A stretch of DNA of 59,357 bases from a virus (taxonomy: Duplodnaviria; Caudoviricetes): positions 1 to 59,357 of the IMG/VR virus record IMGVR_UViG_3300042486_000337; one strand, given 5' to 3'. The notes beneath the pieces were generated by a model. That model was not told the DNA's origin, made no database searches, and was given only the letters and a program-made list of their open reading frames with translations. Positions 54,369-58,885 of this stretch are shown one piece after another. The position numbers and the translations under genes are program-made. Every line of letters starts with the position of its first letter. Position 1 is the stretch's first letter.

Positions 54369-54409
54369 AAAAACAAAAAACCCCAAACTTTTTTTAGAAG
54401 TTCGGGGTT
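54369..54409 (-). terminator. Attenuator terminator 1
   Basis: AACCCCGAACTT-CTAAAAA-AAGTTTGGGGTT followed by U-tract; identical to 58671-58710. Confidence 0.85.
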
Positions 54410-54437
54410 CTCGATTTTATTATTAACTAACCTAATC

Positions 54438-54548
54438 TTACCTTATATTGGATTCACCAATAACCGAACTATGCGTAATACGCGGATACCAACAGATACT
54501 AATCTGGGGTTGACGTTTACTAATCATATTTTTGTTTATTGGTTTCAT
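54438..54548 (-). CDS. Leader peptide 1 (MKPINKNMISKRQPQISICWYPRITHSSVIGESNIR)
   Basis: 36-codon ORF between promoter and terminator; codons 8-24 all match tRNAs of the downstream array; contains antiterminator AGTTCGG. Confidence 0.75.
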   Translation of the reverse strand: MKPINKNMISKRQPQISICWYPRITHSSVIGESNIR

Positions 54549-54571
54549 TTTTTTAAATTTTTTGTTGTTTA

Positions 54572-54616
54572 CTATATAACTATCTCAATAATAGGAAAAG
54601 TTCCTGAAATGTCAAT
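54572..54616 (-). promoter_or_regulatory. Leader 1 promoter
   Basis: TTGACA-N16-TATTATTGAGATAGTTATA; same layout upstream of leader 2. Confidence 0.6.
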
Positions 54617-54645
54617 TTTTTTTTATTTTTTTTTGAATTAAAAAA

Positions 54646-55166
54646 GAAAGGTTCAAAATCATCCCCGCGCCATCGGGTGAACCTTCCAAGTTTCTAATAA
54701 TCTTGGCGACAAATAATATCCCATACCGATACTCCTAAGATTCGTTAGACCATAGTAACCATCCACGGTAGGTGTATACTCTCACCCATCTTTCAGGGTT
54801 ACCCTCAGAACATCTTCACCCTACCACCATAGTTACGTGGGGTCTCACTCGGAAGCGGAGTGTATACTATAAGATTGTTCAGTATTCTTATAGCTTGTGG
54901 GTTGTGCTACGACTAATTAAAGCCCCTTACCCCTTTTACCCATAATAGGGGACTCTTATACTATTTTGATACATGGTCTTCTTCCAAATCTCGATTCGAC
55001 CGGTTAAGGACGAGTCCTTTCGGAATCATAATAGTATTATTGTGTTACCTCCCCCATAGCCTTGAAGCCTTCCAGTCAGGGTCACACACCATAACGGACG
55101 AGCATTTCCGTTAATCGTGGGGTCTTATTATTTTACAAGGTACTTATTTCATTTATTGAACCTTCA
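54646..55166 (-). ncRNA. Large (about 520 nt) structured non-coding RNA candidate
   Basis: Terminal AAGGTTCAA/TTGAACCTT helix, many internal helices, GC-enriched, no ORF. Confidence 0.6.
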
Positions 55167-55321
55167 CTATCTGTGTGATATTTTATCACCACCAATTTAC
55201 TACATTTTCTACAAGGTTCTGTTGAACCTCCAAGTGTTCTTGGGGATAACTTGAAGATTACAGGATTTGAACAATGAGGACAAGATACTGATACTGGTAT
55301 TTTATTCATATTTTTATTTTT

Positions 55322-55582
55322 TTATATTTTACATTTATTTTTCTCAAACCATTCATCCAAAGTGAGAACATATTTATCTATGTTTTTGATATAATCTTCT
55401 TTCCAAATGGTTTTTTCTTCAATTTGGTATTCAAAAACACCAATACCAATTTCATTAAGTATACGAGGATTTTCCAACACGTCAAGTATGAACTTTTCTT
55501 TTGATTTATATTCAAAAGGAATATTCCATTCCCAACATTCAGGTTCAGAACAATATGTGTAATCAAATACTAATTTTTCCAT
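55322..55582 (-). CDS. Hypothetical protein
   Basis: ORF with TATCTTTG promoter at 55601-55608. Confidence 0.65.
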   Translation of the reverse strand: MEKLVFDYTYCSEPECWEWNIPFEYKSKEKFILDVLENPRILNEIGIGVFEYQIEEKTIWKEDYIKNIDKYVLTLDEWFEKNKCKI

Positions 55583-55642
55583 AACTCGTTATTTAGAATG
55601 CAAAGATAATACTTTTAATTTAAATGGTGGAATTTTTTTTTG

Positions 55643-55759
55643 AAGTCGGAACAGGATTCGAACCTGTAATTAAGAGAGGTCACTTACCGCCGATGGGACA
55701 TATACCATCACCCTCTGTATTGCCATACCGCGCCGCGTTACCAGTTCCGCCACCCGACT
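55643..55759 (-). ncRNA. tRNA-like RNA with replaced anticodon domain (AGTC family)
   Basis: AGTCGGG-TGGCGGAACTGGTAACGC...ACAGGTTCGAATCCTGT-TCCGACT. Confidence 0.7.
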
Positions 55760-55964
55760 ATATTCGGGTCGGGATTAAGCTTCTCCCATATGACCCTACT
55801 CTCTTTAGTTGGTTTGTTTATATAAGACACAAACCCATCTCTCTGTAAAAAACTTCAGTCTTCGTAAGGTGAACCTTCTACCCCTCCACCAACTAATCAA
55901 TCGATTGTTACTTTAACGTCTCAACAATCCACATCGGTAGATGACAAGAAAAAAAGACGGCTTG

Positions 55965-56039
55965 TGCTCCCTTCAGGATTTGAACCTGAGACCTTCGCCT
56001 TATGAGGGCGCCGCTCTTACCGGGCTGAGCTAAGAGAGC
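55965..56039 (-). tRNA. tRNA with CAT anticodon (Ile2/lysidine or Met)
   Basis: CGCC-CTCATAA-GGCG; C4-G69 in acceptor stem. Confidence 0.85.
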
Positions 56040-56046
56040 GAAATTA

Positions 56047-56188
56047 AAAAACAAGTTACACGATTTGGTCTACACCGAAATACTTTTCAACCAAACCCCT
56101 TCCAATACGATATTCGGTTTATCGTATTGTCCCCCTCCCTCATAAGAGTTCAGGGTTAAAAGCCTACCAGTCTTACCTCACTTGTTTT
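56047..56188 (-). ncRNA. Rod-like structured RNA candidate
   Basis: AAAACAAGT/ACTTGTTTT base, CTTTTAACC/GGTTGAAAAG, CAATACGATA/TATCGTATTG apex. Confidence 0.45.
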
Positions 56189-56191
56189 TAG

Positions 56192-56273
56192 CGGAAGGGA
56201 CAGGATTCGAACCTGCAAAGCTTTTACACCCGACGGTTTTCAAGACCGCTCGACGACCATTGTCCACCCTTCC
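56192..56273 (-). tRNA. tRNA-Ser(TGA)
   Basis: GCGGT-CTTGAAA-ACCGT; long variable arm; G73. Confidence 0.92.
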
Positions 56274-56318
56274 ATTTTTAACCGACCTAGCTCGGTAAAC
56301 ACATCGGATTTTTTTTTG

Positions 56319-56392
56319 GGGGTCTAACGGGACTTGAACCCGCGACCTCTTGATTCACAATCAAGCGCTCTAACCACTGAGCTATAGACCAC
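56319..56392 (-). tRNA. tRNA-His(GTG)
   Basis: CTTGA-TTGTGAA-TCAAG; G-1/C73. Confidence 0.92.
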
Positions 56393-56470
56393 ATATAAAG
56401 TGCCAGTCTTTCCTGGCCGTCACCTTGCGCCGCAGGGATGCCCGCATTGCCGTTGGTTGCGTTTGTTATT

Positions 56471-56583
56471 GCTGACTAACAAGGACTTGAACCTGATTCC
56501 TGTTTCCCGGGTCGGGACCGTTGAAAGCTTACCACTTTTCGTATCCCTACTGTGTTCTACCGTGCCCATTACACCATAGTCAA
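56471..56583 (-). ncRNA. tRNA-like RNA with expanded central domain
   Basis: TTGACTA-TGGTGTAATGG...AGGTTCAAGTCCT..TAGTCAG. Confidence 0.5.
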
Positions 56584-56632
56584 TCGGATGCTTCGAATCA
56601 TCCAGTCTCAAGTTAATTACTTTTGAGGTTTG

Positions 56633-57615: not shown

Positions 57616-57822
57616 TCCCCCATTTGTTCGTTCATCTCGGAGATGGGTGCTCCTGCACGTGTTTCCACCCACGGGATGGTAGCTTTGCTCCTCAGTATTT
57701 ATGGACTGAGTACCTGTTGAGTAACCATTGGCTACTAATGGTATTTTTTTACCCCACTTCACCAGTAGAGTGGACTGGCTACCATATAGGGAGTGGGGGT
57801 TTCCCGTTATTTCGGGACTCCG

Positions 57823-57897
57823 TGGTGAGAATCGGACTCGAACCGATATCCCTGGATTTTCAGTCCAGTGCGAACTGACCATCTGCGCTATCTCACC
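57823..57897 (-). tRNA. tRNA-Phe(GAA) copy 1
   Basis: CTGGA-CTGAAAA-TCCAG. Confidence 0.9.
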
Positions 57898-57908
57898 TTT
57901 TGTTTTTG

Positions 57909-58046
57909 TGATGTATGTAGGGTTTGAACCTACGGCATTTAATAGGGTACAACATCTTTAAAGTTATTTCTCAAACTCGTCACTTTACCTATTAAAAGTT
58001 ATATCCTGACCCAAACACAAAACGTTACAGGTTTTGTCAATACATC
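57909..58046 (-). ncRNA. tRNA-like RNA with expanded central domain
   Basis: GATGTAT/ATACATC-A acceptor, GTAGG-TTCAAAC-CCTAC T-arm, TTTAATAGG/CCTATTAAA internal helix. Confidence 0.5.
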
Positions 58047-58051
58047 ATTTG

Positions 58052-58124
58052 TGGTAAGAGATGGAATCGAACCATCGGCACCTCGGGCTTCAACCAAGTG
58101 CTCTACCTACTGAGCTATCTCACC
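58052..58124 (-). tRNA. tRNA-Phe(GAA) copy 2
   Basis: CTTGG-TTGAAGC-CCGAG. Confidence 0.9.
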
Positions 58125-58129
58125 AAATG

Positions 58130-58267
58130 ATGATAATGTTGGAGTACCCGTCTCGCTCCAATCTTAAGTGCTTATTCGTAGTTTTACGAGGACCTCGGCA
58201 GGGGGCGGTGAATTCCGATTCCGTCCTGGATTGTCGACATCCGATGGGCGGGGAAAACCATTATCAT
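58130..58267 (-). ncRNA. Unknown GC-rich multi-stem RNA
   Basis: ATGATAATG/CATTATCAT closing helix, TTGGAG/CTCCAA and GGAT/ATCC hairpins. Confidence 0.5.
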
Positions 58268-58351
58268 ATTTTTTTTTGTCTTTCCAAAATGTCCGTTAAA
58301 CTTTCTAGGTAGCGGCACCTTTACACGGCCGTTTAACTCTACTTGTGATGG

Positions 58352-58423
58352 TAGTCGGTAGGAGAATCGAACTCCTCTTACCAGGATGAAAACCTGGGGT
58401 CCTTACCGATAGACGAACCGACC
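58352..58423 (-). tRNA. tRNA-Glu(TTC)
   Basis: CCAGG-TTTTCAT-CCTGG. Confidence 0.92.
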
Positions 58424-58438
58424 ATATTTAGTTCCACT

Positions 58439-58503
58439 ATTTCAATGAACTCCTTTGTTATTTTTGATAGTGCAAAGATACAAAGTTTTTTTTAAAGTCA
58501 AAC
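58439..58503 (-). promoter_or_regulatory. Bacteroidota-type promoter TTTG-N18-TATCTTTG plus boxA-like GTTCATTGAAAT
   Basis: caaagata at 58473-58480, caaa near 58499; boxA-like at 58439-58450. Confidence 0.65.
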
Positions 58504-58514
58504 TTTTTTTTTTG

Positions 58515-58586
58515 TGGCCCCTGTAGGAATCGAACCTACTCTAAATGGTATGTAAGACCACCGCTTTCCCATTAAGCTAAAGGGCC
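58515..58586 (-). tRNA. tRNA-Val(TAC)
   Basis: GTGGT-CTTACAT-ACCAT. Confidence 0.92.
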
Positions 58587-58603
58587 AATTTTATTTTTCC
58601 ACC

Positions 58604-58644
58604 ATTTCAAAGAACTCATTCTGTTTTTTAACACCACAAAGATA
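58604..58644 (-). promoter_or_regulatory. TATCTTTG element and boxA-like GTTCTTTGAAAT
   Basis: caaagata at 58637-58644; atttcaaagaac at 58604-58615. Confidence 0.6.
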
Positions 58645-58670
58645 AAACATTTATTTTTAATGGGAGGATA

Positions 58671-58710
58671 AAAAACAAAAAACCCCAAACTTTTTTTAGA
58701 AGTTCGGGGT
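58671..58710 (-). terminator. Attenuator terminator 2
   Basis: 40 nt identical to 54369-54408. Confidence 0.85.
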
Positions 58711-58751
58711 CATATTATAAATTTTATATTATACTATCCTATATTCGAACT

Positions 58752-58829
58752 TCAACAACGCATACCAAACGAGAAACAAACTTCGTGTTGCTCGACAAAT
58801 GATGATATATGGTTTATTGATGTTCTCAT
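58752..58829 (-). CDS. Leader peptide 2 (MRTSINHISSFVEQHEVCFSFGMRC)
   Basis: 25-codon ORF; codons match downstream tRNAs; antiterminator GAAGTTCG overlaps the stop codon. Confidence 0.75.
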   Translation of the reverse strand: MRTSINHISSFVEQHEVCFSFGMRC

Positions 58830-58843
58830 TTTTTTAATTTTAT

Positions 58844-58885
58844 TATAATTATCTTAATAATAGTAAAAAGTTTTATTTTGTCAAA
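58844..58885 (-). promoter_or_regulatory. Leader 2 promoter
   Basis: TTTGACA-N16-TATTATTAAGATAATTATA, parallels leader 1 promoter. Confidence 0.6.

Follow-up and report, generated by a model that had tools for sequence, protein, structure and literature searches.

Eighteen tRNA genes were predicted by ARAGORN in the 59,357-nt viral sequence analysed here (IMG/VR record IMGVR_UViG_3300042486_000337, in the following referred to as the window), all of them between positions 52945 and 58586. They are organized in two arrays on the minus strand. Each array is preceded by a promoter, a short leader ORF, an intrinsic terminator, a second promoter box, and a boxA-like site (Table 1). The terminators of both cassettes share an identical stretch of 40 nt (54369-54408 = 58671-58710), which is exact and extends by 0 bases on either side, whereas the 87-nt surroundings are 74% alike. 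Related viral contigs carry the same design with other leaders, terminators and array partitions.

Table 1. Features of the two tRNA gene cassettes in the window
Feature	Position	Strand	Description
Promoter P1, cassette 2	58857-58884	-	TTGACA-N16-TATTAT, 11 of 12 to the sigma-70 consensus; also readable as TTG-N19-TATTATTA
Leader ORF 2	58752-58829	-	25 codons, MRTSINHISSFVEQHEVCFSFGMRC
Antiterminator strand 2	58746-58753	-	GAAGTTCG, overlaps the stop codon, complementary to the terminator 5' arm
Intrinsic terminator 2	58671-58711	-	11-bp stem, 7-nt loop (58711-58681) plus T-run; hairpin -14.6 kcal/mol
Promoter box P2, cassette 2	58637-58644	-	TATCTTTG, Bacteroidota -7 element, after terminator 2
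boxA-like site, cassette 2	58606-58615	-	GTTCTTTGAA, before tRNA-Val
Array 2	55964-58586	-	Val-TAC, Glu-TTC, Phe-GAA x2, His-GTG, Ser-TGA, CAT tRNA; interspersed with ORFs, promoter boxes, GC-rich RNAs and tRNA-like genes
Promoter P1, cassette 1	54588-54615	-	TTGACA-N16-TATTAT, 11 of 12 to the sigma-70 consensus; also readable as TTG-N19-TATTATTG
Leader ORF 1	54438-54548	-	36 codons, MKPINKNMISKRQPQISICWYPRITHSSVIGESNIR; first 25 codons after ATG are the sensor part
Antiterminator strand 1	54464-54470	-	AGTTCGG, inside the leader ORF, 30 to 23 nt before the stop
Intrinsic terminator 1	54369-54412	-	Stem 54412-54376 plus T-run
Promoter box P2, cassette 1	54337-54344	-	TATCTTTG, 35 nt after the terminator stem
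boxA-like site, cassette 1	54303-54312	-	GTTCTTTGAA, before tRNA-Pro
Array 1	52945-54283	-	Pro-TGG, Ile-GAT, Lys-TTT, Cys-GCA, Trp-CCA, Tyr-GTA, Gln-TTG, Arg-ACG, Met-CAT, (106-aa ORF), Ser-GCT

The anatomy proposed in the initial annotation, which had described two codon-matched leader peptide attenuators in front of the tRNA arrays, was confirmed with two corrections. The promoters classified there as TTGACA-type also read as Bacteroidota TTG-N19-TAnnTTTG promoters with one or two deviations, and relatives have the canonical form of this promoter at the same place. Furthermore, array 2 is not a simple array, since it also holds ORFs, further promoter boxes, GC-rich RNAs, and tRNA-like genes with a replaced anticodon arm. 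The consensus of the second promoter box was taken from a published study (PMC6847099).

Codon content of the leaders in the window

Under strict wobble rules, 19 of 25 codons in the sensor part of leader 1 are read by array 1 but only 3 of 25 by array 2. For leader 2, 13 of 24 codons are read by array 2 and 5 of 24 by array 1. The former value falls to 12 of 24 if a doubtful Thr-TGT call at 57287-57367 is dropped. Segments of the same length from real phage ORFs reached these matches in 0 of 5000 draws for leader 1 and in a fraction of 0.0012 for leader 2. The claim of the initial annotation that the match is isoacceptor-specific holds. Leader 1 uses Ser AGT twice and Arg CGT twice, whereas leader 2 uses Ser TCA three times and TCG once. 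The proposed role of the CAT tRNA of array 2 as an ATA reader is plausible but not settled. Complements to the terminator 5' arm as long as those found for leaders 1 and 2 were reached in 41 of 2000 and 7 of 2000 shuffled sequences, respectively.

Leader and array co-variation in related cassettes

The initial annotation had suggested two computational tests, namely co-variation of leader and array in relatives with conserved terminator/antiterminator pairing, and a permutation test against genome codon usage. Both came out strongly positive. A third cassette in a close relative (L002), which lies outside the window, fits the rule. Its leader MKNLNTLNRTTLALGNDDRGNLCVKFRI is spelled with Asn, Leu, Thr, Arg-AGA, Gly and Asp codons and stands before Asn, Gly, Gly, Asp, Thr, Leu, Arg-TCT, Leu. 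Its terminator arm carries a C to T and its antiterminator strand a G to A substitution.

From 36 distinct terminator-to-tRNA cassettes, 18 representatives were taken by an automatic ORF rule. In these, 291 of 415 sensor codons are read by the own array under strict wobble, compared to 160 expected from codon usage. Under relaxed wobble these were 340 of 415 against 193. In comparison to same-length segments of real phage ORFs, with ATG counted for all, the match was 297 of 415 against 164 +/- 9.7, with a maximum of 197 in 5000 draws. Of the tRNA species in the arrays, 166 of 182 have a cognate codon in their leader, whereas this applies to 67 of 268 tRNA species absent from the array (odds ratio 31). 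Null coverage was 92 +/- 5.5. About 30% of the sensor codons are not read by the own array under strict wobble, among these the Asn codons in leader 1 of the window and the conserved MR/MK-T start. The arrays rest on ARAGORN calls and on our boundary rules, and since the lineages are related, the counts overstate the number of independent events.

Within the 7 lineages that have 2-3 cassettes, the own array gave the best match for 16 of 16 leaders. Codons read only by the own array number 237, against 52 read only by another array of the same phage. Synonymous choice for Ser, Arg and Ile follows the own-array isoacceptor 32 to 3, which argues for selection on the codon rather than on the peptide level. 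The leaders also follow re-partitioning of the arrays. Where tRNA-Pro sits in the Asn/Gly/Asp array (L007, L015), the Pro codons sit in that leader and are absent from the other leader, and where Leu, Arg-TCT and Leu form their own array (L014), the leader is MRTILLHTLLLNRQGLLRRLMR. Glu and Asp codons are present in 8 of 8 leaders of arrays with that tRNA and in 0 of 10 without.

An independent validation set of 19 further cassettes was found through the boxA-like motif rather than through leaders. It comprises 19 distinct leaders, none of which is in the first set. Here, 186 of 213 tRNA species were covered against 124.5 +/- 5.6 (maximum 145 in 3000), and the match of the whole ORF was 318 of 592 against 249 +/- 11.

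Alternative pairing and translation signals

All 18 representative cassettes have a 6-9 nt perfect complement to their own terminator 5' arm, located between -36 and +12 of the stop. Eight different arm/strand pairs co-vary, including the unrelated terminators CCATCTC/GAGATGG, ACCCACC/GGTGGGT and ACCTCGAGA/TCTCGAGGT. In 16 of 18 cassettes the own arm gives a strictly longer complement than every unrelated arm, and the nascent-RNA fold pairs the strand with the arm in 18 of 18. However, these helices are short, and in leader 1 of the window and three more representatives (Z3-1, Z4-1, Z5-1) the strand starts 24-36 nt before the stop, so that a terminating ribosome would not cover it. In the first 13 validation cassettes a perfect complement of 6 nt or more was found in only 6. 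Seven were then folded with G-U pairs and bulges allowed, and in 5 of those 7 at least 6 arm bases paired upstream.

The start context of the leaders is rich in A. The A fraction from -12 to -1 is 0.67, compared to 0.48 for long ORFs and 0.36 for random ATGs, and A at -3 is 0.89. These are the positive determinants reported for Flavobacterium johnsoniae (PMC6847099). In agreement with the caveat in the initial annotation that promoter elements lie downstream of the terminators, both cassettes of the window, and 13 of 18 overall, have a TAnnTTTG box after the terminator. In these cases attenuation can only modulate part of tRNA transcription. In contrast, 5 of 18 cassettes have no such box and only 13-48 nt between terminator and first tRNA.

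Discussion

The cassettes are best explained as ribosome-mediated leader peptide transcription attenuators, each of which controls a tRNA array and senses the supply of the tRNAs encoded by this array. We consider this reading likely, although it is inferred from sequence comparison and no experiment or transcript end supports termination or read-through; the one RNA run found is kept as contigs and does not cover the leaders. Transcription would start at P1, and a ribosome loading on the A-rich start region would translate a leader of 22-40 codons. The first roughly 17-27 codons form a roll-call in which almost every tRNA species of the downstream array is represented by at least one cognate codon, down to the isoacceptor. 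The last codons, or the bases just after the stop, carry the strand that can pair with the 5' arm of the terminator 24-58 nt further on. If all codons are read quickly, the ribosome would run over this strand to the stop codon, the terminator hairpin would form, and transcription would end before the tRNAs. If any one of the sensed tRNAs is scarce, and if transcription and translation are coupled closely enough in Bacteroidota, the ribosome would stall upstream, the free strand would pair with the emerging terminator arm, and RNA polymerase would read through. The polymerase would then pass the boxA-like site, which probably makes it termination-resistant as in rRNA operons, and transcribe the array. 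The new tRNAs would relieve the stall, resulting in negative feedback with OR logic over 4-19 tRNA species. In the window, the second promoter box after each terminator should give a basal tRNA level on top of this. The initial annotation had inferred an inducible counter-defence against host tRNA nucleases. This may be the case, but a plain homeostatic feedback on tRNA supply fits the same data.

It is possible, though in our view unlikely, that the leaders sense decoding of the array's codons but act by another output than intrinsic termination. Ribosome position might instead control Rho access, RNA processing or stability of the tRNA precursor, or occlusion of promoter P2, and the terminator would then mainly insulate. 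The frequent P2 box and the distance between antiterminator strand and stop in 4 of the 18 representatives are in line with this view. Moreover, no conserved pairing between the sensor codons and the antiterminator strand was found, and 0 of 18 stood out from shuffles. The 1:2 element of the trp model is thus missing, and the default without translation would therefore be read-through. On the other hand, another output would have no need for a strand that is complementary to the terminator arm in 18 of 18 cassettes and co-varies with unrelated terminator sequences, and the cassettes without P2 also argue against it.

Ordinary small phage genes or chance ORFs, resembling the arrays merely by general phage codon bias, appear very improbable. 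A third promoter of the same type at 52934 does drive an ordinary 54-aa lipoprotein-like ORF with its own terminator, and 5 of the 36 terminator-to-tRNA cassettes follow normal 36-67-aa gene ends or no ORF. However, real ORF segments of the same phages never reached the observed totals, and both the preference for the own array and the synonymous choice disfavor this view. In addition, substitutions between close variants swap one array amino acid for another. At one position L007, L008 and L019 have Leu, Thr and Arg, all served by that array. Direct, T-box-like sensing of tRNA by the RNA without translation is equally hard to reconcile with the data, although the regulated signal would also be tRNA and a terminator/antiterminator pair is present. 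No T-box or other cis-regulatory family was found at E up to 1, one leader would have to read 4-19 different tRNAs, and the matching units are in-frame codons of an ATG-started ORF with a favorable start context.

No prior description of such a system was found in our literature searches. The closest counterparts seem to be the leader peptide attenuators of amino acid operons (trp, his, leu, thr, and the multivalent ilvGMEDA and ilvBN of enterobacteria). These likewise appear to combine a promoter-proximal short ORF rich in diagnostic codons with an intrinsic terminator and an alternative pairing that depends on ribosome position, and several amino acids may be sensed at once, as in ilv and thr. 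In the phage-borne cassettes, which carry Bacteroidota-type signals, the regulated genes are tRNAs instead of biosynthetic enzymes. Each of 4-19 tRNA species is represented by about 1-5 codons instead of runs of one or a few codons, the match is isoacceptor-specific, and the loop closes on tRNA rather than amino acid supply. No Rfam leader family matched. The pheM leader of pheST in E. coli probably also controls a component of the decoding machinery in response to charged tRNA, but this cellular system senses one amino acid and its product is a synthetase. Phage tRNAs have been proposed to counter tRNA-targeting host defences (PMC10264068), which gives a reason for phages to carry, and perhaps to regulate, tRNA sets. 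That work concerns tRNA sequence and resistance to cleavage, and its abstract describes no regulated expression by leader peptides. The motif after the attenuator (GTTCTTTGAA or GTTCTTTGAC) is close to, and in some relatives part of, a 17-mer in the 16S-23S spacer of Bacteroidota rRNA operons, between the spacer tRNAs and 23S rRNA. Here it stands before phage tRNA arrays and phage GC-rich RNAs.

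Organization of the cassettes

The genome belongs to a tailed phage with portal, major head protein, large terminase and an FtsH-like protease. Inspection of the minus strand together with the ORF list and a promoter and terminator scan resulted in two cassettes of the same build. The 40 bases shared by the two terminators are identical and the identity stops exactly there on both sides, and hence the observation of the initial annotation, that both minus-strand tRNA arrays start with the same cassette, stands.

Features of the window and of related viral contigs mentioned in the text. 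Positions of minus-strand window cassettes are listed in reading direction.
Record	Feature	Position	Strand	Remarks
window	tRNA genes	52945-58586	-	18 genes found by ARAGORN
window	cassette 2, promoter-like site	58884-58857	-	
window	cassette 2, leader ORF	58829-58752	-	25 aa
window	cassette 2, terminator	58711-58671	-	
window	cassette 2, TATCTTTG box	58644-58637	-	
window	cassette 2, GTTCTTTGAA	58615-58606	-	followed by tRNA-Val and onward
window	cassette 1, promoter-like site	54615-54588	-	
window	cassette 1, leader ORF	54548-54438	-	36 aa
window	cassette 1, terminator	54412-54369	-	
window	cassette 1, TATCTTTG box	54344-54337	-	
window	cassette 1, GTTCTTTGAA	54312-54303	-	followed by tRNA-Pro and onward
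window	identical 40 bases	54369-54408 and 58671-58710	-	
window	third promoter with ORF and terminator	52934-52643	-	TTGACA-N16-TATATT type
window	lipoprotein-like ORF behind the third promoter	52858-52694	-	54 aa, signal ending LVSC
window	terminator of this ORF	52670-52643	-	
window	tRNA-like genes	55643-55759, 56633-56737, 56893-56991, 57288-57367, about 57490-57612	-	anticodon-arm region replaced by 22-61 nt
window	GC-rich stretches	54660-55130, 55770-55960, 56060-56190, 56400-56630, 57620-57820, 58160-58340	-	no ORF, no Rfam match
window	tmRNA	51129-51511	+	RF00023, 88.8 bits, full length
window	terminator of the tmRNA	51516-51539		
window	FtsH-like ATP-dependent protease family ORF	45433-47445	+	670 aa, phrog_4871, E 4e-236
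L002	protein upstream of the Asn/Gly/Asp-array cassette	7566-7820	-	84-86 aa, unknown function
L007	protein upstream of the Asn/Gly/Asp-array cassette	4098-4355	+	84-86 aa, unknown function
L008	protein upstream of the Asn/Gly/Asp-array cassette	5436-5693	+	84-86 aa, unknown function
L007	CAT tRNA	4002-4076		
L014	terminator-to-tRNA cassette set aside	19361		after a 36-67-aa gene end
L015	terminator-to-tRNA cassette set aside	7550		after a 36-67-aa gene end
L032	terminator-to-tRNA cassette set aside	17156		after a 36-67-aa gene end
L030	terminator-to-tRNA cassette set aside	348		after a 36-67-aa gene end
L024	terminator-to-tRNA cassette set aside	9322		no ORF
L019	terminator before an array with Pro-CGG	15704		

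Cassettes in related viral contigs

A search of viral contigs with the terminator sequence resulted in close and more distant relatives. The close relative L002 carries a third cassette that lies beyond the end of the window. Its leader is MKNLNTLNRTTLALGNDDRGNLCVKFRI, its terminator has one C-to-T change in the 5' arm, and the complement of the arm in the leader has the matching G-to-A. The corresponding array is Asn-GTT, Gly-GCC, Gly-TCC, Asp-GTC, Thr-TGT, Leu-TAA, Arg-TCT, Leu-TAG. Since this cassette could not have been seen in the initial annotation, it represents a true prediction test, and it fits. The more distant contigs L005 and L007-L009 have two cassettes with a different partition. 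One merged array corresponds to window arrays 2 plus 1 without Pro, and its leader MRTTMVHISSFKQQEICSWYRYVENCSSENKVK has no Pro codon. The other is a Pro-Asn-Gly-Gly-Asp-Thr-Ala-Leu-Arg-Leu array behind MKNLNTLLATLAPTNGGGRDLCSRVQI, a leader with Pro and Ala codons, followed by a terminator of different sequence with its own matching complement.

To widen the set, the small protein that is conserved immediately upstream of the Asn/Gly/Asp-array cassette in many lineages was used as bait, which gave 43 viral loci at 27-100% identity. These loci were scanned for hairpin-plus-T-run terminators with a tRNA within 260 nt downstream, and the longest ATG ORF of at least 12 codons ending within 110 nt upstream of the terminator was taken as the leader. 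From the 36 distinct cassettes identified in this way, 18 were analyzed as representatives, two from the window and the rest from L002, L005, L007, L014-L018, L035, L041 and L048. Of the remainder, 13 were near-identical variants and 5 were set aside as not leader-like. New types kept the rule. These were MRTILLHTLLLNRQGLLRRLMR before Leu-TAA, Gln, Arg-TCT, Leu-TAG, MKTMNTNTNLDTPTTPNGDAGTIRMSSDIIFE before Pro, Asn, Asp, Gly, Thr, and MKNLNIILLGGTEADTRFRTEMV before Asp, Met, Gly, Glu, Leu, Ile-TAT, Leu, Phe, Thr. An exception was found in the viral contig L019, where a Pro-CGG tRNA sits in an array whose leader has no Pro codon, perhaps due to a recent insertion.

No cultured model was found in the phage collection searched. 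A blastn search of the region against 50,697 phage records resulted only in tRNA-sized hits, and a tblastn search with the conserved upstream protein found no match in the GenBank phage collection. The nearest isolate by portal protein, Flavobacterium phage immuto (37.5% identity), has four tRNAs and no such cassette. An Rfam search of 50000-59357 yielded only tRNA, tmRNA and chance hits, and no leader, T-box or other cis-regulatory family was found at E up to 1.

Codon content of the leaders

The sensor part was defined as the codons after ATG and before the strand that complements the terminator. Under strict wobble (G34 reads C/U, U34 reads A/G, A34 reads U/C/A, CAT reads ATG only), 291 of 415 sensor codons are read by the own array, against 160 expected from the codon usage of long ORFs of the same loci. 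With U34 allowed to read whole boxes and CAT also ATA, the figures are 340 of 415 against 193. Same-length segments of real ORFs of the same loci gave 164 +/- 9.7 with a maximum of 197 in 5000 draws, compared to 297 observed with ATG counted throughout. Coverage is the sharper measure. From the 182 tRNA species in arrays, 166 have at least one cognate codon in the sensor part of their leader (null 92 +/- 5.5), whereas this applies to 67 of 268 species not in the array.

Within the seven lineages that have two or three cassettes, every one of 16 leaders matches its own array better than the other arrays of the same phage, which controls for phage codon bias and for the set of tRNAs a phage carries. 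In these, 237 codons are read only by the own array and 52 only by another. Where an amino acid is served by different isoacceptors in different arrays of one phage, the leader uses the codons of its own array's isoacceptor 32 times and those of the other 3 times. This argues for selection on codons rather than on the peptide. In the window, leader 1 scores 19 of 25 against its own array and 3 of 25 against each of the other two. Leader 2 scores 13 of 24 against its own array, compared to 5 and 4, and drops to 12 of 24 without a doubtful Thr-TGT call. The N-terminal codons of the leaders are conserved but unmatched, and the lineages are related, so that the counts overstate the number of independent events.

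The identity of the CAT tRNAs was also addressed. The array-2 copy clusters with CAT tRNAs of relatives, and one of these, from L007, best matches the E. coli gene annotated tRNA-Ile, with anticodon CAT, next to mug. However, the window copy itself best hits tRNA-Arg at 77%, and the array-1 copy hits nothing. Ile2 identity is plausible but not shown.

Terminator and alternative pairing

The terminators form hairpins of -10 to -18 kcal/mol followed by T-runs. In all 18 cassettes a perfect 6-9 nt complement to the own terminator 5' arm is located between -36 and +12 nt of the leader stop, 24-58 nt before the terminator. Individual shuffle frequencies range from 1 to 131 in 2000. The pairs differ between cassettes and change together, namely CCGAACT/AGTTCGG, CGAACTTC/GAAGTTCG, CTGAACTTC/GAAGTTCAG, CTGAACAC/GTGTTCAG, CCGAACCA/TGGTTCGG, CCATCTC/GAGATGG, ACCCACC/GGTGGGT and ACCTCGAGA/TCTCGAGGT. 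The end zone of each leader complements its own arm strictly better than any unrelated arm in 16 of 18 cassettes and at least as well in 18 of 18. Folding of the nascent RNA up to the terminator loop pairs the strand with the arm in 18 of 18. With the 3' arm added, the terminator is usually the more stable fold, as expected for a kinetic switch. In contrast, an anti-antiterminator (1:2) pairing of the sensor codons with the antiterminator strand was not found, the best upstream complements being 3-6 nt, none of which stands out from shuffles.

Promoters, start regions and the boxA-like site

Leader ORFs of 22-40 codons lie 35-80 nt behind TTG-N19-TAnnTTTG-like promoters in 16 of 18 cassettes. 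These P1 sites read as Bacteroidota promoters. The consensus is perfect in several relatives, while the window has TATTATTG and TATTATTA. The boxes after the terminators (P2) are canonical TAnnTTTG. The start regions of the leaders are richer in A than those of long ORFs (0.67 against 0.48; A at -3 in 0.89). Both the promoter consensus and the A-rich start determinants are taken from PMC6847099. The promoter type is not specific to leaders, because a third promoter of the TTGACA type in the window drives an ordinary lipoprotein-like ORF with its own terminator.

The boxA-like site of some relatives, the 17-mer GTTCTTTGACATRTTGG, occurs in bacterial genomes almost only in Bacteroidota. The window copies share GTTCTTTGAA only. 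In host chromosomes the 17-mer is the rRNA spacer element. It typically lies just after spacer tRNAs, with a tRNA within 250 nt upstream at 69 of 122 sites, and before 23S rRNA, as in L172 and L175, where it was located between the spacer tRNAs and 23S. Only 1 of the 122 sites has a tRNA downstream, and no leader cassette was seen there. Among 115 sites in viral contigs, in contrast, the motif precedes tRNA arrays in 55 cases and directly precedes conserved GC-rich non-coding sequences in 60 cases, including the contigs L054, L066, L074, L076, L077, L088, L091 and L129, and several contigs share the same downstream RNA. The motif looks like a general leader for stable RNAs of Bacteroidota phages. 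Hence, we infer that the host is very probably a member of the Bacteroidota and that the site is probably a borrowed antitermination signal of rRNA operons.

Independent validation

The motif search selected loci without regard to leaders. Of the 55 sites followed by tRNAs, 27 had a terminator within 130 nt upstream. These 27 cassettes collapsed to 22 distinct peptides not in the first set, and to 19 after merging those at least 80% alike. Using the whole ORF and the same automatic rule, 186 of 213 tRNA species are covered (null 124.5 +/- 5.6, maximum 145 of 3000) and 318 of 592 codons match (null 249 +/- 11, maximum 288). A striking case is the locus L055, where the leader MKTLPNINWSSSRWSSRKNLGPDRVMR stands before Ser-GCT, Ser-GGA, Arg-TCT, Trp, Arg-TCT, Arg-CCT. 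The antiterminator is less clear in this set. A perfect complement of at least 6 nt occurs in 6 of the first 13 cassettes, and with G-U pairs and bulges allowed, at least 6 arm bases pair upstream in 5 of the 7 that were folded.

A putative attenuator of tRNA arrays

The data fit a ribosome-mediated attenuator, in which translation, stalling, termination and read-through are inferred from sequence only. Smooth translation to the stop would mask or pass the antiterminator strand, and the terminator forms. A stall at any listed codon would leave the strand free to capture the terminator arm, and the polymerase reads into the array, whose product, more tRNA, removes the stall. This reading has weak points. 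P2 boxes follow the terminator in 13 of 18 cassettes, including both in the window, as the initial annotation had cautioned, although 5 of 18 have none and too little room for one. The helices are short, the 1:2 element is missing, and in window leader 1 the strand lies 23-30 nt before the stop. Whether transcription and translation are coupled closely enough in this phylum is unknown to us. The only RNA data found, one lake-water metatranscriptome run holding 5% of the sampled words, consist of contigs, mostly 85-95% alike, which cover GC-rich RNAs and tRNAs but not the leaders, and provide no information on termination, starts or ends.

The proposed mechanism works like the enterobacterial leader-peptide attenuators and the cassettes meet their structural criteria except for the 1:2 element. 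It differs in the target, which is tRNA genes instead of amino-acid biosynthesis or aminoacyl-tRNA synthetase genes, in the sensor design, a roll-call of many isoacceptors, and in the carrier, a phage. No description of leader-peptide control of tRNA genes was found in the open papers and preprints searched. The design is widespread, with at least 23 viral contigs in the first set and 27 further loci in the second.

It has been debated for decades why phages carry tRNA sets and how these are used (PMC10264068), and no regulatory logic for their expression is known to us. If our reading is right, tRNA genes can be under translational feedback control by a leader peptide, a target class not described for attenuation, and the leader gives a direct, sequence-readable statement of which tRNAs the phage regards as one unit. 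The design would be compact, modular and evolvable, since moving a tRNA goes with rewriting a codon. It would be an attractive natural test bed for ribosome-mediated attenuation in Bacteroidota, where translation initiation and promoters differ from the textbook organisms, and could also serve as a synthetic tRNA-supply sensor.

A more far-reaching and only tentative interpretation is that a large clade of Bacteroidota phages carries a programmable roll-call sensor. Each tRNA sub-array would then be a regulon whose leader lists, codon by codon and isoacceptor by isoacceptor, the tRNAs it encodes, and this leader would be rewritten whenever a tRNA gene moves between arrays. The phage would thereby measure the decoding capacity of the infected cell and switch on only the sub-array whose members run short. 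This may serve as an inducible answer to host tRNA decay after shut-off and to tRNA-cleaving defence nucleases, although the sequence does not distinguish such a counter-defence from homeostasis.

Other features in the region

Five genes in the window resemble tRNAs, with nearly the same acceptor, D and T arms, but with a replaced anticodon-arm region according to Infernal alignments. One of them is called Thr-TGT by ARAGORN, which is doubtful. They could be intron-bearing or non-decoding tRNA-like RNAs. The GC-rich stretches between the tRNAs are candidate unknown structured RNAs. Metatranscriptome contigs, 85-95% alike, lie on 54634-55085 with a summed word depth of 188-261. A phage-encoded tmRNA, which was not called by ARAGORN, is located next to the tRNA arrays on the opposite strand. 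Together with the ORF matching an FtsH-like ATP-dependent protease family, it suggests a phage-borne pair for ribosome rescue and tag degradation.
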